A stretch of DNA of 30,638 nucleotides. Source: a virus (Duplodnaviria; Caudoviricetes). A program made the translations under genes and the position numbers. Below, piece after piece: positions 1 to 26,540 of the stretch. The notes beneath the pieces were generated by a model. That model saw only the letters and a program-made list of their open reading frames with translations, did no database searches and had not been told where the DNA came from. The DNA is taken from positions 1-30,638 of the IMG/VR virus record IMGVR_UViG_3300017903_002428; one strand, 5' to 3'. Within the stretch, counting starts at the first letter, position 1. Each line of letters opens with the position of its first letter.

Positions 1-141
1 GCCGGTATGTATGTGGTCATGCCGCGCCCCATGGAAAGACCCTCTGCCCACCATCTGACAGTCTTGGCAGCCTGTTGGTCCAGATGACCTCTGAAGACCG
101 CTTGCCACCGTTCTTGCTGGGATTGCCTTGAATAGTGGCAA
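1..141. repeat. Terminal direct repeat (circular assembly overlap), copy 1
   Basis: 1-141 is identical to 30498-30638. It cuts through the methylase/terL junction, and 141 nt matches a common assembler k-mer, so this is a circular or permuted contig rather than a biological terminal repeat. Confidence 0.95.
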
Positions 142-787
142 GTGTTCGAAACGGTAGCCATTGGGCCCCTTCATTTTCGCACACCATCACGAATCCATGA
201 CGAGACTGACACCACCTCCCCAAACTTTCGAAAGATGCCGGCTGATGCGGATAGTAGCTGCCTGCTTTGTTGGCGTACGGTGGATCGATGTGCCAAGTGG
301 CCTCTATATCTGGAGCGTCTGAATACTCACCATGAATGACCTGCCAGTGCCGGATGCTGCCCATCTGTTTTGCTATTCGTTGACGACAGGGGTGAGTCCA
401 CCCCTGCCATCCCCCATCCTGCATGTTTTCGCGCACCCACTTGGATGGGCGCTTGCACGGGTTCACTGTGCCATTGTTGCACCAGAACCCTGCGAGCCAT
501 CGAGCCTCTTGAGGCACCCATGCAGGCAGGTCATCCACACTGCCCCCATCCGGGATGTCTGGAATGGCCAACACCTCTGCTGCGCTTGCTTTGATGAGGT
601 ATCGCCAGATGCCCGCAATGATGGGCGACCGGTCCACAAGGATTACCTGCTTCCAGTGGTAGCGACAGCTGTACCCTGCAGCCCCAGCAAAGGGCTCGAT
701 GATGATGTCATGCTCAGGGGCAGGGTAGAGCTTCGCAGCCCTGTTCTTGCCCCCGTAGTATCGCCAGAATGGCTGTAGTCCTCTCAT
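17..787 (-). CDS. DNA N6-adenine methyltransferase (D12/Dam-like class)
   Basis: Motif X (YYGGK), SAM-binding motif I (EPFAGAAG) and catalytic motif IV (DPPY) occur in alpha-class order. GAGAGGACAAC RBS. The stop overlaps the terL start (ATGA). Confidence 0.9.
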   Translation of the reverse strand: MRGLQPFWRYYGGKNRAAKLYPAPEHDIIIEPFAGAAGYSCRYHWKQVILVDRSPIIAGIWRYLIKASAAEVLAIPDIPDGGSVDDLPAWVPQEARWLAGFWCNNGTVNPCKRPSKWVRENMQDGGWQGWTHPCRQRIAKQMGSIRHWQVIHGEYSDAPDIEATWHIDPPYANKAGSYYPHQPASFESLGRWCQSRHGFVMVCENEGAQWLPFRTLATIQGNPSKNGGKRSSEVIWTNRLPRLSDGGQRVFPWGAA

Positions 788-807
788 GTTGTCCTCTCAT
801 CTACAGC

Positions 808-1369: not shown

Positions 1370-1479
1370 GCGCTATGCTGTCTGTGCCCGGCGCGGAGCC
1401 TTCAAAGCCTCAAGCAAAATAGTTTGCTCGCTGGCACCGGATTCTGAAATCCGCGCCGGGCACTCATCGAGAGGACACC

Positions 1480-1731: not shown

Positions 1732-1753
1732 CCACAACACTTGAGAGGACACC

Positions 1754-1828
1754 ATGCAACAGCACATCGAGGACGCAGCAGGGGCAGTCATCATCTTTGC
1801 CCTCATCTTTCTGGCAATGAGCATCTGA
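1754..1828 (+). CDS. 24-aa single-transmembrane micropeptide (MQQHIEDAAGAVIIFALIFLAMSI)
   Basis: Not in the ORF track. It has the same GAGAGGACACC-ATG start as its neighbours and fills the gap between them. Confidence 0.65.
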   Translation: MQQHIEDAAGAVIIFALIFLAMSI

Positions 1829-1835
1829 GGACACC

Positions 1836-2236: not shown

Positions 2237-4500
2237 ACGCACAGCATCCTGATACCCGTGTGCGGTCTGTGTGGCCCACCCCTCCAGAAGGCTGCTGCTA
2301 TGTGGAGCAGTCCCTGAAGGGTGGTGACTACATCAGTACCGGCTACTTCCATCGGGGCACAGTGGACAGCAAGGGCAGGGGGCGCAGTGTCGAGAACTGC
2401 CAAGGGGTCACCTCCCTGTTCTTTGACCTTGACCTCCTCGGACTGGTGGATGCTGCCCGGCTTGCTCGAGGGCAGGCGCTGCCTGACAAGGCTGCAGACC
2501 GCAAGGCGCACATGTACCAGATGCCGGAAGAACAACGGCAGCAGTGGCTGGACCTGCTCCTGCAGGATGTGGGTGGCATCCTCGAGTCTGTCATGGGTGC
2601 GCCGCCCACCCTCACCATCTGCAGCGGGTGGGGCTACCACTTCCACTATGCAGTCAGTGAGCCCATGCGGACGGAGAAGGCTGCCCTGCAGTCCCTGCAT
2701 GCTGCTGTGGTGGATGAGTGCAACAGGCAGGCAAGTGAGGTGGGGCAGACGCTGCACCCACCCCTCACCACCTACCACAAAGCCTATGACCGCACCCATG
2801 ATGTGGGCGCAAGGCTTGCGCGCGCACCCGGTAGCCAGAACACCAAGTGTGCATGGCGCATGAGCTCGGTGGACATCATTGCCGCGTCTGACACCGTGCT
2901 GGATTCTGACACAGTGGGCAGACTCCGGACGCAGTGGGAAAGGCAGGGGCAGCTCACAGACAATGACAAGGCACGGGCCAAGGGCAGCCCTGTCCCCTCG
3001 AGGAAGCGCCCAAGGCAAGCAAAGTCTGTGGATGTGGATTTCCGGGCGCAGCGCCTTGCAGACGGCCGCTCATGGCAGCAGCTTGCAGATGCACTGGCAC
3101 CGGGTGAGCGCCTGAAGGTCATCTGCCCGTTCGGTGGCACCAGTGTGGGCAGTGGCTTCTTTCACAGGGAGCAGGACGGCCGCGTCCGGTACTACTCCTC
3201 CATGCAGGCTGTGACCTATTGGAACAGCTACCGTCCCAGCACTACACCCGGACTGGTGGACCTGCGACGGTCCCCACCCAAGAAGGACGGGACACAGGGA
3301 CGCATCCTCAACAGCGTCACCAACCTGCACACCATGCTCACCCATGACGCTGCCTTCAGCCTGTGGTTCGATGAGTTTCGGCAGCAGGAGATGGATGGGC
3401 ATGATGTGATCGATGACGGCATCTGGGTGCGCGTCATCACTCACATGGAGTCTGCCTATGACTGGCAGTGGCGTGTGGGCAAGGAGCTGCTGTTCAGCGC
3501 CGTCGAGTTTGTGTGCCGACAAAGCAGCAGGAACCCTGTGCAGGAGTACGTCAAGCAGCTCAAGTGGGATGGCTGCCCAAGGATTGACCGCTGGCTCCTC
3601 GAGGTCTGCAACACTGAAGACCTGCCCATCTACCGGGTGTACGCTCGCAAGTGGGTGCTGGGGCTCATGGCTCGACTGTTCAGCCCCGGATGCCAGCTAC
3701 ACACGTGCATGCTGCTGACCGGGCCTCAGGGATGGGGGAAGAGCAGTGTGTGGCGCGAGTGGGCCAACTGGCCCGGACAGACGGAGCTGTACTCAGACAC
3801 CAGATTCAACATCAAAGACAAGGACTGCTATCTGCAGCTGTACTCGGCTCTCATCTACGAGGACGCCGAAATGGCAGGGAGCTCCAACGCAGACCAAGAG
3901 ACTCGCAAGGCCTTCATCACTTCTGCTGTGGACCGCTTCCGCCCACCCTTTGGGCGCAAGATGCGCACCTACAGGCGGCACACAGTCATCACCATGACCT
4001 CAAATGAGCAGGACGTGCTCAGAGATCGAACGGGGTCAAGAAGGTACTGGGTGGTGCCTTGCTCGGGTGAGGCTGCAGGCCTGCGATGGCTGGGCAAGTA
4101 CCGCGACCAGATGCTGGCAGAAGCCTACGAGGAGTACCAGAAGGGTGAGCAGTGGTGGCTCACCCCGGATGAGTCAAAGATGCAGCGCAAGGCCAACGGG
4201 GTCTTCCAGTACCACGACTGGTTCTCGCAGTGCGCCCTTGTGGCATGGGATGCCAACGGCGCAGGCCGGCGCAATCGCTTCACAGTTGCGGAGTTTGCCG
4301 CAGCAATAGACCAGAATCTGTCCGTCCAACGGTTTGGACTGTCGCTATCTTCTGCCCTGCATTCTGCAGGCTTCACCCGGTACCGCTCAGGCGGTGCCAC
4401 CTACTACTACAAGACCGGTGACTCCACAGGCTCAGCCACCGGACTCCTTGCCATCAGGGGCCTGACCCGTTCCAGCCATGAGCAGCAGGCTGGACTTTGA
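2233..4500 (+). CDS. Primase-helicase: N-terminal AEP/RepB-type primase fused to a VapE-family SF3-like P-loop ATPase
   Basis: AEP motifs LFFDLD, SGWGYHFHY and D..ARLARAPGSQN. VapE signatures NPVQEY..WDG.PRID, Walker A GPQGWGKS, RPPFGR and TSN..L.DRTGSRRYW. Confidence 0.9.
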   Translation: MNAQHPDTRVRSVWPTPPEGCCYVEQSLKGGDYISTGYFHRGTVDSKGRGRSVENCQGVTSLFFDLDLLGLVDAARLARGQALPDKAADRKAHMYQMPEEQRQQWLDLLLQDVGGILESVMGAPPTLTICSGWGYHFHYAVSEPMRTEKAALQSLHAAVVDECNRQASEVGQTLHPPLTTYHKAYDRTHDVGARLARAPGSQNTKCAWRMSSVDIIAASDTVLDSDTVGRLRTQWERQGQLTDNDKARAKGSPVPSRKRPRQAKSVDVDFRAQRLADGRSWQQLADALAPGERLKVICPFGGTSVGSGFFHREQDGRVRYYSSMQAVTYWNSYRPSTTPGLVDLRRSPPKKDGTQGRILNSVTNLHTMLTHDAAFSLWFDEFRQQEMDGHDVIDDGIWVRVITHMESAYDWQWRVGKELLFSAVEFVCRQSSRNPVQEYVKQLKWDGCPRIDRWLLEVCNTEDLPIYRVYARKWVLGLMARLFSPGCQLHTCMLLTGPQGWGKSSVWREWANWPGQTELYSDTRFNIKDKDCYLQLYSALIYEDAEMAGSSNADQETRKAFITSAVDRFRPPFGRKMRTYRRHTVITMTSNEQDVLRDRTGSRRYWVVPCSGEAAGLRWLGKYRDQMLAEAYEEYQKGEQWWLTPDESKMQRKANGVFQYHDWFSQCALVAWDANGAGRRNRFTVAEFAAAIDQNLSVQRFGLSLSSALHSAGFTRYRSGGATYYYKTGDSTGSATGLLAIRGLTRSSHEQQAGL

Positions 4501-4512
4501 GAGGACACAACC

Positions 4513-5142: not shown

Positions 5143-5166
5143 CCACCACTGCAAAGAGAGGACAAC

Positions 5167-5658: not shown

Positions 5659-6170
5659 TGTCTGACCCCTATGAGAATGCACAGGTATTCATCGGCATTG
5701 ACCCGGGCCCCAAGACCTTTGGGCTGATTGTCTACGCTGTCAAGCAGGGTGAGGCACTGGGGACTGTGGTGCTGGCAGACGGCAAGGCAGACCCCACCCG
5801 TGCCCGGTCTGTCATCGCTGCCCTTGCTGCTGACCATCCCATTGTGGTTCTCGAGCACACCCACCCCGGCCCACCCTCGTGGTCCATGGTGCACACCTCG
5901 GTGCAGCTCGGGCGCATCTGGGAGTATGCAGCCATCAAAGAGGTGCAGGTGTGGCCTGCTCATCGCAAGAAGGTCAAGGCCCTGCTGGGCAACAGTGACA
6001 GCGCCATCAGGCGCAGCATCTGTGAGCTGCACGGGTATGACCCGGACACCCTGCATCCTCGGCATGAGGGCAGGCTGCACGGGGTCTCATCGCATGCATG
6101 GCAGGCCTTGGCTGCTGTGCTCTACCACATCCACAACAACCACCACCCCATCACTGAGAGGACAGCATGA
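5658..6170 (+). CDS. RuvC-like (RNase H fold) Holliday junction resolvase homologue
   Basis: FIGIDPG..TFG, VVLE and K.VK motifs. The C-terminal helix SHAWQALAAV aligns with RuvC DAADALA. Confidence 0.7.
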   Translation: MSDPYENAQVFIGIDPGPKTFGLIVYAVKQGEALGTVVLADGKADPTRARSVIAALAADHPIVVLEHTHPGPPSWSMVHTSVQLGRIWEYAAIKEVQVWPAHRKKVKALLGNSDSAIRRSICELHGYDPDTLHPRHEGRLHGVSSHAWQALAAVLYHIHNNHHPITERTA

Positions 6171-6997
6171 CCATTCCCACCCCGGAGCAGACCGCAGCCT
6201 GGACAGATGCTGACTACTTCGCCTTCGATGCGGTCAATGCATCGAGCCTGAAGCAGCTGGCAAAGAATCCCCTCATGTACAGGCACCGGCTGCTAAACCC
6301 CATCCCCAAGACCTCGAGCATGGTGCTGGGGTCTGCCGTGCACTGCCTTGTCTTTGAGCCCTTGGAGTTTGAAAAGCGGTATGCAGTGACTGCCCTGAAC
6401 AGACGCACCAAGCTGTACAAAGAGTGGGCAGCGGAGCAGGGGGACCGTGACATCCTGACAGAAGCGGAGCATGACAAGGCGCTGCAGACTGCCCTGTGTG
6501 TCAGTGAGCATCCCATGATGTCTGAGCTGCTGGCCCACCCCGGTACTCAGGTGGAGCGTGCCATTGTGTGGCAGGGACTCTTCGGGCCGTGCAAGGCCAA
6601 GCTTGACCTGCTGCACTACAGTGAGGAACACGGGCTCATCATCATTGACCTGAAGACCACAAGCAGTGACCTCGATGAGCACACTCTGACGCACACCATG
6701 GGGAAATACCTGGTACACCTGCAGCTCTACCACTACCGGCATGCTGCCTGTGCCCTGCTGGACCTGCCCTACTATGCAGTCGAGAAGATGCGACTGGGGG
6801 CACTGTACGTGCAGACTTCTGCCCCACATGACACCGTGCTGTGTGAGCTGAGCCCCAACACCATCATGGCATCAGCTGACCTGTACAAAGACCTTGCTGA
6901 CCTGTACGAGGGCTGCAAGACCATGGGCCTGTGGCCCGGATACAACAAGGTTCGGACTGTTGACATCCCGGACTACTACACCACCATCAAGATGTGA
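6167..6997 (+). CDS. PD-(D/E)XK exonuclease, RecE/exonuclease VIII (DUF3799)-like
   Basis: NASSLK, GSAVHCLVFEP, CKAKLD, IIDLKTT and HLQL..Y motifs. Confidence 0.85.
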   Translation: MTIPTPEQTAAWTDADYFAFDAVNASSLKQLAKNPLMYRHRLLNPIPKTSSMVLGSAVHCLVFEPLEFEKRYAVTALNRRTKLYKEWAAEQGDRDILTEAEHDKALQTALCVSEHPMMSELLAHPGTQVERAIVWQGLFGPCKAKLDLLHYSEEHGLIIIDLKTTSSDLDEHTLTHTMGKYLVHLQLYHYRHAACALLDLPYYAVEKMRLGALYVQTSAPHDTVLCELSPNTIMASADLYKDLADLYEGCKTMGLWPGYNKVRTVDIPDYYTTIKM

Positions 6998-7006
6998 GAG
7001 GACAAC

Positions 7007-19988: not shown

Positions 19989-22177
19989 GCTCTCCGCCCC
20001 ATGATGACCTTGGCGCCCTTGGTGTTGTACATGTATTCGTGGCCCACAAGGATGATGTCTGCAGTAGTCTCGAGCTCAAAGCAGAACCATGCAGCAGACT
20101 GATGGGCCACACTGTAGCGCAGGGGCACCAGACGTTCTTTCTGGTATGTGGCAGGCGCACCCAGCAACGTGATGTCAAGGGTGGGCAGCACAGCAGCATC
20201 AGGAGGCTGTGCCAGATAGGTGCGCTCGAGCACAGGGGTGAGGCTGAAGTCTTTGTAGTGCCGCATGGTGATGCTGGCGTCACCCGTAGTCATCACCCAG
20301 ATGGTCACATAGGTGACCTCTTTCTGCAGCTGGGGGTCTCCTGCTGAATACCAGGCTGAGCGGTAGGTACTGGTGGGCGGGTCATCAAAGACCATACCCT
20401 GCTCTTGGATGGAGCTGCCCAGTGCACGCTTGCCCGAGAGGACAAACAACCCGCGTTCTGTGTTGGGGTCTCCTGATTCTGCCCCTGTGTTGTGACCGAA
20501 GATGACCGTGCCATCTGCCCGAGTAGCAAGGGCGCCCACAGGGAAGCCCCTGCGAGTGCTCCATGGGCTCAGGCGCTGAGAGTCCACAAGGGCAAGCCGG
20601 TCAAGGTGCAGCACCAAGCCAAGGTTGGGGCGGTCATTGCCGTTGGCAGGGAAGTACACATGGTATTCCCTGAGGGCTGCGCTGAAGACTCCCTGTGCCT
20701 TGGGCAGGCAGTCAGGGGTCATGCGCTCGATGACCTCATCCTGCCCCACAGTCAGGTTGACAGCATCCTGAATGGCACCACCCTGCAGGCCTCCTGTGAG
20801 GGCATAGACCCCATCCGTAGCAAGGAAGACCACACCCAGCCCCGGTACCGCTGCAATGCTGTGGGGACTCAGGCATGTGATGCTGTTGCTGATGGTGGTG
20901 ACTTGGAAGCCCTGCACAAAGTCACCGGTCACCACGTCGATGCCCTGCTCTCGGAAGACCAGAAGCGTTGTGTAATGGGCGAAGAGCCCGGTGACTGCCC
21001 CACCCTCACTGCTCAGCTGAATGAAGTTGGTGGCACCAAACTGCTCGATGAGTCCAGGCTGAGAGTAGTACAGGGACAGGCCATCATCAATGCCCCCATC
21101 AAGCCACAGGCTGCCACCGAACAGGGCGCTGAAGCGTGCGCGGGGGGCAGGCAGGGGACCAGTGGCAAGCTCAGCCTGAGGCTGCCCCAGTCCGGGTGAG
21201 CGCGTCGCATCAAAGAACAGGTCTTCTGTGTTGTTCCGTACAATATCGAGGAAGTACAGGGTGGTGTCCCCCACAAACTGCCAGTCGTCGCTGTAGTTGC
21301 GGGTGCGGTACAGCTTCCTTGCTACGGTCCCCTCAGGCCCCACAGGGAGCTGCACACCCACTGTGTGCCGGAAGCCTGCACTGTCCACCACAGGACTCCA
21401 TGCGACGGTACCCAGCTCGCTGGCAGGCCCCTCGCTGCCCGTGTTGGTGATGAAGCTGACCGCATAGGCAAACTGTGCCTGATTGTCTCCGGACTCAGCA
21501 CCTGTGCCTGTGTTGCCGGGAAAGCCCAAGCCCCATCTGCCACCGTCTGCCACCCCTTCAGGGTTGTCCAGATTCCAGATGGTGAGGGCAGTGCCCTGAG
21601 TGGTGGGGGTGTAGAAGGGGTCTGCTGCGTTCTTTGCAGGCATGGTCTGCACCGGCAAGGGCTCGGGAGCGATGGGCTGCCCAGCAAAGCCAAAGGGCCG
21701 GATGCATCGAGTGATGGCAGGAGATGCTTCTGCTGCGTCACCCAAGGGCCATGGGTTCACAATGACAGGACGGTCCACACCATTGGTGACGATGACCCCG
21801 TAGGGGGTATCCGTGAACCATGACCCTGCCTCTGTGGGTGTGGGGATGTGGCGCCCCTCTGCAAGGGTGAGCAGTCCGGGCACTGCAGGGGACTCATATA
21901 CATAGGACAGCTTGCCGTCTGCTTCGAACAGCACCGCCTGCCTTGCGCCGCCTGCGAGCTGCTGCGCAACATGCAGGGAGGTGACAGGGCCAACAGTCTG
22001 GAAGGGCTCCCAGTTGGGCTGCCCGGTCCTGTACTGTTCGTAGCCGATACGGCTGCTCCACCCACCGGATACCCGGTCAAGAGTCCAGTTCTGCAGGCGC
22101 CCTGCATCCTGAGGATTCTGGGGCAGGCGAGTAGCCAGCCCTCCTGCAAGCGGTGTCTGGTATTGGCTGCCATTCAT
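19985..22177 (-). CDS. Podovirus tail nozzle/stabilisation protein (P22 gp10 / T7 gp12-like)
   Basis: 730 aa, beta-propeller-like. N-terminal GGL...N..R.G pattern, LYYS..G..E.F segment, and position after the adaptor. Confidence 0.7.
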   Translation of the reverse strand: MNGSQYQTPLAGGLATRLPQNPQDAGRLQNWTLDRVSGGWSSRIGYEQYRTGQPNWEPFQTVGPVTSLHVAQQLAGGARQAVLFEADGKLSYVYESPAVPGLLTLAEGRHIPTPTEAGSWFTDTPYGVIVTNGVDRPVIVNPWPLGDAAEASPAITRCIRPFGFAGQPIAPEPLPVQTMPAKNAADPFYTPTTQGTALTIWNLDNPEGVADGGRWGLGFPGNTGTGAESGDNQAQFAYAVSFITNTGSEGPASELGTVAWSPVVDSAGFRHTVGVQLPVGPEGTVARKLYRTRNYSDDWQFVGDTTLYFLDIVRNNTEDLFFDATRSPGLGQPQAELATGPLPAPRARFSALFGGSLWLDGGIDDGLSLYYSQPGLIEQFGATNFIQLSSEGGAVTGLFAHYTTLLVFREQGIDVVTGDFVQGFQVTTISNSITCLSPHSIAAVPGLGVVFLATDGVYALTGGLQGGAIQDAVNLTVGQDEVIERMTPDCLPKAQGVFSAALREYHVYFPANGNDRPNLGLVLHLDRLALVDSQRLSPWSTRRGFPVGALATRADGTVIFGHNTGAESGDPNTERGLFVLSGKRALGSSIQEQGMVFDDPPTSTYRSAWYSAGDPQLQKEVTYVTIWVMTTGDASITMRHYKDFSLTPVLERTYLAQPPDAAVLPTLDITLLGAPATYQKERLVPLRYSVAHQSAAWFCFELETTADIILVGHEYMYNTKGAKVIMGRRA

Positions 22178-23536: not shown

Positions 23537-23575
23537 AGGGGAAAGCCCCAGCCCCTGAGCAGGAGGGACTGGGGC
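23537..23575 (-). terminator. Probable intrinsic terminator/attenuator of the capsid-cement transcript
   Basis: GCCCCAGUCCCU/AGGGGCUGGGGC 12-bp stem with a G-U pair that works only on the - strand, followed by UUUCCCCU (weak U tract, consistent with read-through). Confidence 0.7.
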
Positions 23576-23618
23576 AGGGCAGGGTGGGCGAGAGGACAGC
23601 AAGCCCAGCACCTGCCCC
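23576..23618 (-). ncRNA. 3' UTR hairpin with loop antisense to the phage's conserved RBS (candidate sRNA)
   Basis: GGGCAGG-ugc-UGGGC-[UUGCUGUCCUCUC]-GCCCA-c-CCUGCCC. The loop is the reverse complement of GAGAGGACAGCAA. Confidence 0.5.
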
Positions 23619-23628
23619 GGGGGGGGTC

Positions 23629-24102
23629 TCAGAATCGCTTGAGGATGTGGATGGCGACCTTGTTGGCGGTCGTCGCACCCTTGGCCTCGAGCGCCACAGC
23701 AAACAGGCCGGCAGTATCGGCAGCAGCTGCAGTCTCCACCTCACCCGCTGCAGTGGAAGCAGCAGACAGGGCGGCACCCGTCAGGATGGTGCCGTTGGTG
23801 CAGTTGACGTCTGCAGCGTAGCCACTGACCACAACCCGCACCTGCTCACCTGCACCGGCTGCAGCATTGAGCGCCACGCCGATGGCAAGCGGGTTGCCGG
23901 TTCCAACGTTGGCAGCCTGCTTGATGTACAGGACGCGGTCTGCGCCGGTCTTGGTGTTGTCAAGCCCGACCACATCACCGGCCACAATCGCAGCACTGGA
24001 GATGAAGGTCTCCACCTGTCGACGGTTGGAGGTGTCGCCTGCAATGGAGGTGGGGCTGGTGATGCCGTCACCCAGAAACTGAACGAGGGTAGAAGTAGCC
24101 AT
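23629..24102 (-). CDS. Capsid cement/decoration or head-fibre protein (DUF2190-like)
   Basis: Start moved to MATSTL after GGAGG. AIVAGDVV, AIGVALNAA.AG..V.V...G and AVALEA motifs; directly follows the capsid gene. Confidence 0.75.
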   Translation of the reverse strand: MATSTLVQFLGDGITSPTSIAGDTSNRRQVETFISSAAIVAGDVVGLDNTKTGADRVLYIKQAANVGTGNPLAIGVALNAAAGAGEQVRVVVSGYAADVNCTNGTILTGAALSAASTAAGEVETAAAADTAGLFAVALEAKGATTANKVAIHILKRF

Positions 24103-24107
24103 ATTTC

Positions 24108-25118
24108 TCAAGCCTCCGCATCGAGGAGGACACCATGCGAAGCAAGGTGACCGGTGACGAGCTGCATACGGCAAAAGACCATTGCAGCCTCAGTGGCAGT
24201 ACCAGGCACGGGCATCATGTCCGAGACCTCAAAGAAGCCATCGGTGTCAGCGTACAGCTGGAAGTTGCTGCTGCTCAGCACATAGGCGCTGACCGGCTTG
24301 GCAGGGTTCTGCGCCGTGAAGCCAAGGTTGGGCTCGACGTAGATTTTCGCGCCGCGCCACATGGCAACCATGTCACGGTCAAGCGTCTCACGGTCGCCTG
24401 CGCTGACATAGTTGACATACGACTGCTGCTGCTTCTGGAAGGCAGCGAAGCACTTTGGCGACATGAAGATGATGTCGGGGAACTCACCGGAGGGGTTCCG
24501 AATCTGGCAGTCAATCATCAACTGGTCAAGGTGCGACAGGTCGAAGTTGGCAGCAGAATCGAAGAAGTTGTTGAACCAGTTTTGTGCTTGGTAGGTGGCC
24601 TTGGAAAGACCGCCCACACTGTTCTGCTGGCTTGCAGCTGCAACACCCTCGAGCCAACCGGTGCCGGCTGCAGTGGTCATGCCGTTCAGGGTCTGCAGGG
24701 AGGTGAGGGTAGAGCTGTTGCCCACCATAACCTGCTTACTGACCTCTTTCTTAAGGCCGAGCATAACATTCTTCATCTTAGACTCGAGAATGTTTACTAC
24801 AGCAAGGTCACCCTTGTTAGCAGCCTTTTCCACAGCGCTTAGAATAATAGGCTGGGTAAAGTTACTATATTCGAACTTAGCGCTGTTAAAGGGGTCGGTA
24901 ACGGCCATAGAAACGGGTTCGAACCCATTAGAGAGCTCGGTGATAGAGCTGTGCTCTCCGAAAATTACCGGTTGCTCCACTCGCAGGCCACCACTGACCT
25001 TGACGAGGTTGCCGGCGGACTCGATGGCGCGAAAGAGGGGATGGGACAGGAAGCTGTTGTCGATAAGCTTATCGCGCAACAGCTGCAGCGTAGTGCTGAT
25101 AACTGACTGGGGTGCCAC
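24108..25118 (-). CDS. Major capsid protein (HK97 fold)
   Basis: 336 aa with GTG start and GGAGG SD. L.DN.F.SHPL, GG..V..P, PD.I.MS and LVT.....HGVL patterns; lies between scaffold and cement. Confidence 0.85.
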   Translation of the reverse strand: MAPQSVISTTLQLLRDKLIDNSFLSHPLFRAIESAGNLVKVSGGLRVEQPVIFGEHSSITELSNGFEPVSMAVTDPFNSAKFEYSNFTQPIILSAVEKAANKGDLAVVNILESKMKNVMLGLKKEVSKQVMVGNSSTLTSLQTLNGMTTAAGTGWLEGVAAASQQNSVGGLSKATYQAQNWFNNFFDSAANFDLSHLDQLMIDCQIRNPSGEFPDIIFMSPKCFAAFQKQQQSYVNYVSAGDRETLDRDMVAMWRGAKIYVEPNLGFTAQNPAKPVSAYVLSSSNFQLYADTDGFFEVSDMMPVPGTATEAAMVFCRMQLVTGHLASHGVLLDAEA

Positions 25119-25127
25119 GGTAGGCCT

Positions 25128-25205
25128 CCACTGTGGATTGATTGCTTGCGGTATAGGGGCGTGCAGTGGTCACCACTGTGCCGATAGCGCAAGCCTCCAC
25201 AGTGG
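25128..25205 (-). promoter_or_regulatory. Structured 5' leader of the capsid gene overlapping its SD
   Basis: Nested stems (+ coordinates): CCACTGTGGA 25128-37 / TCCACAGTGG 25196-205; GCTTGCG 25144-50 / CGCAAGC 25188-94; CAGTGG 25164-69 / CCACTG 25173-78. Confidence 0.7.
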
Positions 25206-25224
25206 GGTGGGCTCACATGAGGCG

Positions 25225-25233
25225 ACTATAGCA
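25225..25233 (-). promoter_or_regulatory. Candidate extended -10 promoter (TGcTATAGT) for the capsid operon
   Basis: TGnTATAgT just after the scaffold stop and about 20 nt before the leader stem, in a genome where TA is otherwise rare. Confidence 0.55.
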
Positions 25234-25238
25234 CGCTG

Positions 25239-26054
25239 TCACTTGCGGTGCATAGCCTGAGCGATGGCCAGAATATCTGCAGCACTTGCACGCTTCAGGT
25301 CACCTGCTGTGGGCCTGCCTTGAGCGCCTGCCCTGCGAGGGGTGCCCGTGGCTGTGAGGGCTGCCTGTTTGGCTGCCCGCCTCTTTGCCCGTCTGCTTTC
25401 CTGCTGCTCAGCCTGCTGCTGCTTGGCTCGCTTGCCTCGAGCTGCCCAGTAGGCTGTCTCCAGGTCAAGGCCATCGTTCTCCTCGAGGAGGTGCTGCACC
25501 TCTGAGCGCAGGCCTGTGTCACTCTCAAAGTCCGGGTGCTGCTGCAGGAACGTCCGGTAGTTGTCCTGCGCCTGCTGCTGTTCGTACTCAGCCTGCATGG
25601 GCTCGAGCACTTGCTGCAGACGTTTGGTGACCTCAGCCTCAATGCGTGCCTGAATGCTCGCCTCATTGAACGGGTCGTACTCAGGAATCTCATCGGGTGC
25701 CTGCAGGGCCTGCTTGCCCTTCATCAGGGCTTCACGCTCTGCAAGGAAGTCCTTGCGCTGCTCTGCGAGCTCCTGCGTCTTGCGGGTGTAGTCCGCTTGC
25801 ATGCTGCGCATCAGCTTGGCGATGTCTGGGGGCACAGACTTGACTGCCTGCTCCCAACTCAGGCCCCGCTTCTTTGGCTCCTCGCCTTCTGCCTGCTCCT
25901 CGATTTCCACCTCTGGCCCATCTTCTGCCATGGCATCCACCATGGCCTGCACCTCGGCAGATGGCTCGGGGGCTGCAGGCTCGGGCGCTACCGGTGTCTC
26001 AGGGTGGGCTGCTTGCACCTCGGCAAGCACCTGCTCAGCTACTGACTCATGCAT
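25239..26054 (-). CDS. Capsid scaffolding protein
   Basis: Acidic N-terminus, QADYTRKTQELAEQRK scaffold motif and basic C-terminus; upstream of the capsid gene. Confidence 0.85.
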   Translation of the reverse strand: MHESVAEQVLAEVQAAHPETPVAPEPAAPEPSAEVQAMVDAMAEDGPEVEIEEQAEGEEPKKRGLSWEQAVKSVPPDIAKLMRSMQADYTRKTQELAEQRKDFLAEREALMKGKQALQAPDEIPEYDPFNEASIQARIEAEVTKRLQQVLEPMQAEYEQQQAQDNYRTFLQQHPDFESDTGLRSEVQHLLEENDGLDLETAYWAARGKRAKQQQAEQQESRRAKRRAAKQAALTATGTPRRAGAQGRPTAGDLKRASAADILAIAQAMHRK

Positions 26055-26063
26055 GTTGTCCTC

Positions 26064-26540
26064 TCATTGCTTGAGCTTGATGGGTTGCCCCACTTGTCTG
26101 TACCAAGAGGGGTTCCAGCCTGGGGCAGTCACAAACTCCACAGGCCTGCCCAAGAAGGTGGTGCCAAGCTCGAGCACACTCACCCCTTGGATGCGATTGA
26201 CAAGGAAAGTCCTCCAGCCGGGCAGGCCGCCTGTGGCTGTGGCGGACTGGGGGTCAACATAGAGGTGCAGATAGGTGCGCCCGTTGGCTCCCTTCCAGAT
26301 GGCATGCGGGTTGCCCACACGCTGCCCCAGTGCACCTGGTGTCCCTTCTGGCTGCCACTTGTCCTTGTAAAAGAAGGTGACCGGCTGCTTGCGCTCGATG
26401 GCCTGCACAAGGTTGCCCATGACCCCACCCTCATAGGAGCGGTAGTAGGCCTGCGCCCGAGTGGCAGGCACTACGGATTTGGGGCGCTGCCCGAACCCGA
26501 ACAGCTGCGCCAGTCTCAGCCTGATGCTTGTGAAGGCCAT
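26064..26540 (-). CDS. Stand-alone WYL-domain protein
   Basis: LVQAIERKQPVTFFY...R..NPHAI.....TYL...WRTFLVNRI matches the WYL consensus (AI...V.F.Y, R...P, YL, R.F...RI). No HTH domain. Confidence 0.75.
   Translation of the reverse strand: MAFTSIRLRLAQLFGFGQRPKSVVPATRAQAYYRSYEGGVMGNLVQAIERKQPVTFFYKDKWQPEGTPGALGQRVGNPHAIWKGANGRTYLHLYVDPQSATATGGLPGWRTFLVNRIQGVSVLELGTTFLGRPVEFVTAPGWNPSWYRQVGQPIKLKQ

Follow-up and report, generated by a model that had tools for sequence, protein, structure and literature searches.

The window, i.e. the whole stretch of 30,638 nt of viral DNA (Caudoviricetes) that was analysed, represents the complete, circular genome of a phage, its two ends overlapping by 141 nt. 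A plus-strand block codes for primase-helicase, ERF, resolvase, exonuclease and SSB, and the minus strand carries the genes for methyltransferase, terminase, portal, scaffold and capsid, with virion genes further downstream (Table 1). The gene 3′ of the capsid, here called ‘cement’, had no match when searched against PHROG and Pfam. As a lead to the host there is only the capsid of Myxococcus phage Mx9 (26% identity over half the length), which is too weak for naming a host. There is a divergent control region (1086-1279) with two TTGAC-headed inverted arms of 29 nt and four copies of ACCCTGCAC, which looks operator- or promoter-like; at 1324-1369 and 1384-1463 lie a palindrome made up of three repeats of the TGGTACCA type, and an inverted repeat with perfect arms of 14 bp that encloses 52 nt and sits just before the first early RBS.

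The subject of this analysis is the 3′ UTR of the capsid-cement message, i.e. the minus strand of 23537-23628, which in the predicted fold consists, from 5′ to 3′, of a run of C residues, a first hairpin (hairpin 1) and a second hairpin (hairpin 2). A sequence-only reading of the same DNA had placed a hairpin with a 13-nt loop between the cement stop and the terminator, and the fold of the minus strand bears this out. The loop of hairpin 1 stays open when the full capsid-cement message is folded (global MFE), and in local folds the probability that its 9-nt seed is unpaired is about 0.5. The fold of the UTR is modest (z-score -2.09, with 7 of 200 shuffles folding equally well), and neither strand folds better than the other in the window genome (-50.0 vs -50.3). 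Hairpin 2 (12 bp at 23545-23576) is a strong, covarying hairpin, yet it has a weak U tract and is absent from the terminator-scan calls. It had also been said to expose CCCUCCU; this did not hold up, only 3 of the 7 nt being unpaired, and the motif was rejected as a second seed for the window genome with the other four bases paired. In sub-lineage A3 (L016, L018, L021 and L047) the loop of the terminator hairpin is a second anti-RBS copy (GUGUCC, GUGUCUUC), and the terminator loops of other clade A members are CUGCUC-like, without a clear target. In a scan of the window against Rfam, five matches came out at E<=5, all of them weak and far below the gathering score, and none over 23537-23628.

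Table 1. Genes, UTR elements and predicted target sites in the window (strand as transcribed; energies in kcal/mol).
Feature	Position	Strand	Basis or remark
Methyltransferase-like gene	17-787	-	stop overlaps terminase start across the 141-nt terminal overlap
Target RBS, methyltransferase	790..798	-	9-nt Watson-Crick run; ranking; motif directly at terL in relatives without the insertion
Target RBS, small early gene (83 aa)	1469..1477	+	9-nt run; ranking
Target RBS, short early ORF	1743..1751	+	9-nt run; ranking
Weaker 7-nt site, small early gene (69 aa)	1827..1833	+	-5.5, below the gap in the ranking
Target RBS, ERF annealing protein	4499..4507	+	9-nt run; ranking
Target RBS, 163-aa gene (weak HTH-like leads)	5156..5164	+	9-nt run; ranking
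Target RBS, exonuclease	6156..6167	+	12 bp; -15.5, rank 1
Target RBS, SSB	6996..7004	+	9-nt run; ranking
Hairpin 2 with pyrimidine tail, terminator-like or 3′-protecting stem, loop CCUGCUC	23537..23576	-	fold
Hairpin 1, presenting the seed	23577..23618	-	fold and covarying stem
Open 13-nt loop UUGCUGUCCUCUC, anti-RBS seed, core GUCCUC	23590..23602	-	fold
Unpaired C-run directly after cement stop	23619..23628	-	found in most close-clade UTRs
Gene 3′ of capsid, ‘cement’	23629..24102	-	ORF; label positional, from the sequence-only reading
Major capsid protein	24108..25118	-	phrog_9953, E 3e-19
Structured capsid leader	25119..25216	-	conserved across the family; covarying arms
Extended -10 promoter-like site TGCTATAGT, just past scaffold stop	25225..25233	-	consensus match only
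Scaffold gene	25239-26054	-	label positional, with a weak atlas lead
Target RBS, scaffold	26057..26065	-	9-nt run; -12.4; covariation
Stand-alone WYL-fold protein, head operon, just upstream of scaffold	26064-26540	-	Pfam E 0.0015, below cut-off

The loop of hairpin 1 is complementary to GAGAGGACA, a motif that precedes eight genes of the window, and the target sites lie 2-9 nt upstream of start codons. The Watson-Crick runs are exactly as first counted, with 12 pairs at the exonuclease RBS, nine at seven further RBSs and seven at the site at 1827. GAGAGGACA occurs ten times against 0.34 expected, i.e. at the eight RBSs, in the loop and once within a CDS (20436), and when the UTR was shuffled 2000 times with its dinucleotides preserved, the 9-mer turned up in four of the shuffles. 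The CDS copy at 20436 had been pointed out beforehand as a sign of chance hits and is indeed there, but a 7-nt antisense copy in the capsid CDS (24126) had been missed; both were set aside as codon-derived, because genomes that lack the motif regulon have such copies too. The idea that the inverted motif serves a plus-strand ORF was also dismissed, given that no start follows it in the window and none is conserved.

When 36 hand-picked gene starts were ranked by ungapped helices with the accessibility of both partners, the genes preceded by GAGAGGACA took ranks 1-8 (-15.5 to -10.5 kcal/mol, the next at -7.6), and the starts of capsid, cement, portal, adaptor and primase-helicase scored zero. 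A preference for motif-bearing genes, on which the sequence-only reading depended, is therefore what the ranking returns, its top eight of 36 being exactly the eight motif genes. An accessible seed that is complementary to the SD regions of its targets, as found here, is a hallmark of trans-acting anti-SD riboregulators. Because the methylase overlaps the start of the terminase, and terL itself carries the motif in relatives, the target set contains two late units, terminase and scaffold. Both in the window and in the clade B genome G017 (L078:4036), terL is separated from the motif RBS by the insertion of the methyltransferase-like gene, which has taken over the putatively regulated start.

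Clade A was defined as those fetched loci with a capsid identity of at least 88.5% (n=79), of which 61 include the UTR, in 33 distinct sequences. All 33 have the core GUCCUC, and in 27 of them the MFE fold leaves every base of it unpaired. For the outer seven pairs of hairpin 1, over the 26 of these sequences that were aligned, 99.5% of cells are paired and six of the seven pairs show compensatory changes, whereas slid controls are 42-58% paired. The late strand folds better than its complement in 41 of 43 UTRs (G·U pairs 124 vs 66), a set made up of the 33 clade A sequences and ten that were picked after their pairing had been seen, and the window genome is one of the two exceptions. Clades B and C/D differ from clade A in that the seed is the loop of the 3′-terminal hairpin itself, and in a quick version of a capsid tree the clades A, B and C/D are separate, with loop-less lineages in between. 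The cement gene is much more variable within clade A than the capsid (47-95% vs >=90% identity) and its C-terminal types are common to several clades, which suggests from sequence comparison that this gene may be a swapped module while the UTR stays.

Both a scaffold start and the UTR are available for 124 loci, 68 of them distinct, and here loop and RBS can be followed together. In clade A each of the 21 members pairs with the RBS of its own scaffold gene, at <= -9.8 kcal/mol (with UTR accessibility only), and the sub-lineages have their own loop/RBS versions, namely GUCCUCUC/GAGAGGAC, AUGUCCUCUU/UAGAGGACAA and CGUGUCCUC/GUGAGGACAC, the pairing reaching 14 bp in L155; in G007 a loop C lies opposite an RBS A beside the core, with eight pairs left. 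Ten distant members among the 68 pair by means of other codes: UUGCCC(U) in the loop with AGGGCA(A) at the RBS in clade B, CUUCUCUCC/GGAGAGAAG in L077, UUUCCAGUU/AACUGGAGA in L132, CCCUGUA/UACAGGG in L133 and L139, and GCUCCUUGU/ACAAGGAGU in L138. The remaining 37 of the 68 are without such pairing (weaker than -7.3), and it is therefore dispensable in most lineages.

Own pairs were compared with other pairs in a permutation test over all 68, for which each capsid cluster was represented by one randomly drawn member. The own pairs were the stronger ones at 38, 20 and 6 clusters, with a worst p of 0.0096 (-5.32 vs -3.84 at 20 clusters, p 0-0.0096; -9.05 vs -5.33 at 6 clusters, p<=0.007). Within clade A the difference is seen at 12 clusters (-13.8 vs -11.8, p<=0.0003) and is borderline at five coarser ones (p 0.01-0.10), and control RBSs (capsid, cement, portal, g158 and terL) are not significant (p 0.18-0.79). 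The co-variation of loop and RBS among relatives, which had been put forward as a check, is thus present: the core is invariant in clade A, and loop and RBS motif change together. A seed that lies in a covarying structure and itself covaries with its targets is, again, a property of anti-SD riboregulators.

A count of 7-mers before ATG (GAGGACA at 12/15 in the window, the clade B motif ranked 256) was swamped by spurious ORFs, and for this reason the regulon was scored on homologous starts. In 17 clade A records, which are related to each other and of which six used the loop of a neighbouring locus (the UTR of G004 itself being cut off), the starts of terL, scaffold, ERF, g163, exonuclease and SSB reach a pairing of 7 nt or more, with wobble allowed, in 62 of 63 cases, one of the 62 (the window terL) being a chance wobble run outside the RBS; the figure for other starts in the same records is 19 of 187. 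Capsid starts reach seven pairs with wobble in 7 of the 17, and primase-helicase (2/12) and resolvase are mostly spared. True substitutions in the core number three, in terL and SSB of G007 and in terL of L168; all are A→G opposite a loop U and keep a G·U pair, and the three cases come from one lineage.

The complete clade B genome G017 has AGGGCA(A) before the inserted methylase-like gene, terL, scaffold, ERF, exonuclease and SSB, as well as before one early gene and one virion gene, and judging by these motifs clade B is the same target set under a different code. In the clade C genome G021 the only targets found were the scaffold and one opposite-strand early gene. In loop-less genomes, where few early genes were mapped, the scaffold RBS motif does not recur at such a gene set. 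A search of eight loop-less genomes or loci for relocated anti-RBS loops, by a 7-mer rule that also missed the 6-bp seed of clade B, returned scattered matches and one hairpin-loop candidate: at L126:940 (plus strand), far from the capsid, a hairpin loop contains CUUCCUU, complementary to the scaffold RBS of the same genome, and may be either a relocated copy or chance.

The capsid and cement genes are likely, from their sequence signals, to form a 1.7-kb unit of their own ending at hairpin 2. Of the seven extended -10 matches that the genome contains, the TGCTATAGT site is the best and the only one with 5/6, and most close relatives have a similar site. The leader that follows has no match in Rfam; its 5′ arm is predicted by folding to pair over the capsid SD, and on this model it could possibly be a translational switch that couples coat synthesis to a ligand. 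Visual inspection of the final 78 nt of the cement gene, a widely varying stretch, revealed no conserved promoter-like motif. In loop-less L042, L051-L069, L122 and L130, TACACT or TACAAT is found just before the terminator hairpin of the post-cement UTR, and resembles a -10 box that would serve the virion genes downstream.

The reading that we prefer, to which a probability of roughly 0.6 can be given from the sequence comparisons, is that the loop of the capsid-cement 3′ UTR base-pairs in trans with a lineage-specific RBS motif and acts as a protein-free dosage brake. An extended -10 promoter of its own would drive the capsid-cement message, which would end at hairpin 2, and the message or a stable 3′ fragment of it would accumulate with genome copy number. 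By pairing, it would keep ribosomes from loading at the terminase unit, at scaffold, ERF, exonuclease and SSB, and at several small early genes, so that the accumulating message would damp the recombination and DNA-binding proteins and cap terminase and scaffold relative to the coat protein. That pairing over the SD blocks initiation is inferred by analogy, from what the papers on icaR (PMC3868564), C4 (PMC5320573) and CyaR (PMC11795201) describe. Trans action would be required for ERF, exonuclease and SSB because these genes are on the opposite strand, and since capsid and cement have a putative promoter of their own, pairing with the scaffold RBS, too, would for the most part take place in trans.

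The sequence-only reading had proposed a late RNA that silences early genes. Its anti-RBS pairing is supported by conservation, covariation and ranking, but the early-to-late switch built upon it is too simple, as the target set includes the late terminase unit and the scaffold, with primase-helicase and resolvase mostly spared. With terminase and scaffold required late, and primase-helicase largely left alone, a brake that scales with the abundance of the coat message would fit better than an off switch. To form helices of 8-9 bp, a closed loop may depend on a chaperone. The WYL-fold protein, whose gene is conserved across the family and whose fold matches are CapW, PafBC, BrxR and DriD (Z 9.9, rmsd 3.3 and 91 aligned for DriD), could be a cofactor, but loop-less lineages have its gene as well.

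One competing explanation is coincidence, in which a pyrimidine-rich loop of a terminator region happens to match purine-rich SDs. Many relatives do have C-rich loops without strong pairing, and there are the coding-derived antisense copies at 20436 and 24126; nevertheless, the own-versus-other permutation is significant with null control genes, both partners are switched in clade B, and the core is kept in 33/33 while the stem varies. Coincidence is largely refuted by the permutation test and the clade B code switch, and is very improbable. Covariation would also be expected if loop and RBS motif were inverted copies of a site for a DNA- or RNA-binding protein of the phage (or the plus strand made a decoy RNA), the two drifting together with the specificity of the protein, and both the stand-alone WYL-fold gene just upstream of the scaffold and the equal folding of the plus strand in the window genome would suit such a site. 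However, the sites lie 2-9 nt before start codons, the single inverted copy sits in the loop of a covarying stem, the late strand is favoured in 41 of 43 folds, the pairing runs into the flanks gene by gene (14 bp in L155, 12 bp at the window exonuclease) and the WYL gene occurs both in lineages that have the loop and in lineages that lack it. The consensus of CsrA is GGA, and as clade B is without GGA, a reading of the CsrA type cannot be general either. We regard a protein-read site as improbable.

Other explanations accept the pairing and differ on what it does. It could be neutral or positive (through nuclease protection, RBS opening or co-localisation of messages), or act mainly in cis on scaffold and terminase in read-through transcripts, in the manner of icaR. 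Scaffold and terminase are indeed located upstream on that strand, no partner is as consistent as the scaffold RBS, and few other targets were found in clade C/D (scaffold and one early gene in G021), but the helix covers the SD itself and the opposite-strand ERF, exonuclease and SSB keep the motif in clades A and B, which leaves this account quite unlikely. Finally, the same pairing could serve as an immunity or carrier-state repressor, like that of P1/P7 C4: a host-type promoter would make capsid mRNA constantly, the leader would prevent translation of the coat, and packaging and recombination genes, whether of the resident phage or of an incoming sibling, would be shut off by the tail, the lineage codes being immunity groups. 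This would agree with a sigma-70-type extended -10 before the capsid, a leader predicted to pair over the capsid SD, a code that diverges between lineages and, in C4 (PMC5320573), loops that confer target specificity. Against it, there is no integrase or repressor among the proteins scanned and no relative in the prokaryotic genome collection, and the near absence of primase-helicase from the targets (2/12) would be an odd gap for a silencer; such a role is unlikely.

A capsid-UTR loop that was swapped between lineages together with a matching multi-gene RBS motif is a rare case of natural compensatory evidence for a trans RNA regulon, here in a small phage with regulon targets of its own. The case also (i) makes a testable claim on how the ratios of coat, scaffold and terminase are set, (ii) offers in clades A and B ready-made RNA-RBS pairs that are predicted to be mutually orthogonal and (iii) provides a simple genomic signature with which other phages can be screened. 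A broader proposition, to which we would give somewhat less than even odds, is that genes on both strands share an RBS barcode that the tail of the coat mRNA reads, that both are rewritten in each lineage so as to meter packaging, scaffold and recombination proteins, and that this design recurs in unrelated phages as an unrecognised class of control.

The timing and stoichiometry of phage gene expression are usually credited to proteins, such as sigma factors, RegB and scaffold autoregulation. The RegB endoribonuclease of T4 acts on a class of the phage's own mRNAs that is marked for shut-off by GGAG; RegB is a protein nuclease, whereas the reader in the capsid UTR is predicted to be RNA. In P22, the autoregulation of the scaffolding protein is post-transcriptional and the scaffold protein itself acts; the likeness lies in limiting scaffold relative to coat, the candidate limiter in the window phage being the RNA of the coat message. 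RNAIII and RsaE have C-rich hairpin loops that target SD regions. In CyaR (PMC11795201), a pyrimidine-rich hairpin seed pairs with SD regions and is followed by a terminator. CyaR, RNAIII and RsaE read a near-generic SD sequence in bacteria, unlike the capsid UTR, whose predicted targets have an RBS motif of their own that changes along with the loop from one lineage to another.

Hairpin loops of a phage RNA that pair in trans with the phage's own mRNA, partly covering an RBS, and in which the loop sets the specificity, are described for C4 of P1/P7 (PMC5320573). However, C4 is a three-stem RNA that is cut out by RNase P and serves immunity, whereas the capsid UTR has two hairpins and one seed loop, has 6-9 predicted targets on both strands and is without an Rfam match to C4; neither the three stem-loops nor the a′ and b′ loops of C4 are found in it. 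In the icaR 3′ UTR of Staphylococcus aureus (PMC3868564), a 3′ UTR motif pairs with an SD and blocks initiation, but the SD is that of its own message and the target is one. The capsid UTR spares the SDs of its own message, the capsid and cement starts being without interaction, and is predicted to target other genes; icaR-type pairing between 5′ and 3′ UTRs was thus not found at these starts, although in read-through RNA the scaffold may be paired in cis. The phage sRNAs covered in the opening parts of a 2025 review (PMC12197685) are mostly cis antisense RNAs or host-directed sRNAs. A full-text literature search, with subscription papers mostly outside its coverage, found no anti-RBS regulon of a phage capsid UTR, and the motif had no match in the part of the supplement searched for the IMG/VR structured-RNA catalogue (PMC10690425), which may hold the hairpin without an anti-RBS reading. 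By these tests the hairpin would work like an anti-SD riboregulator and is no member of C4, of the icaR type or of any Rfam family. What is new here, as far as sequence comparison indicates, is a putative anti-SD RNA control with a lineage-specific RBS code that is both conserved and covarying.
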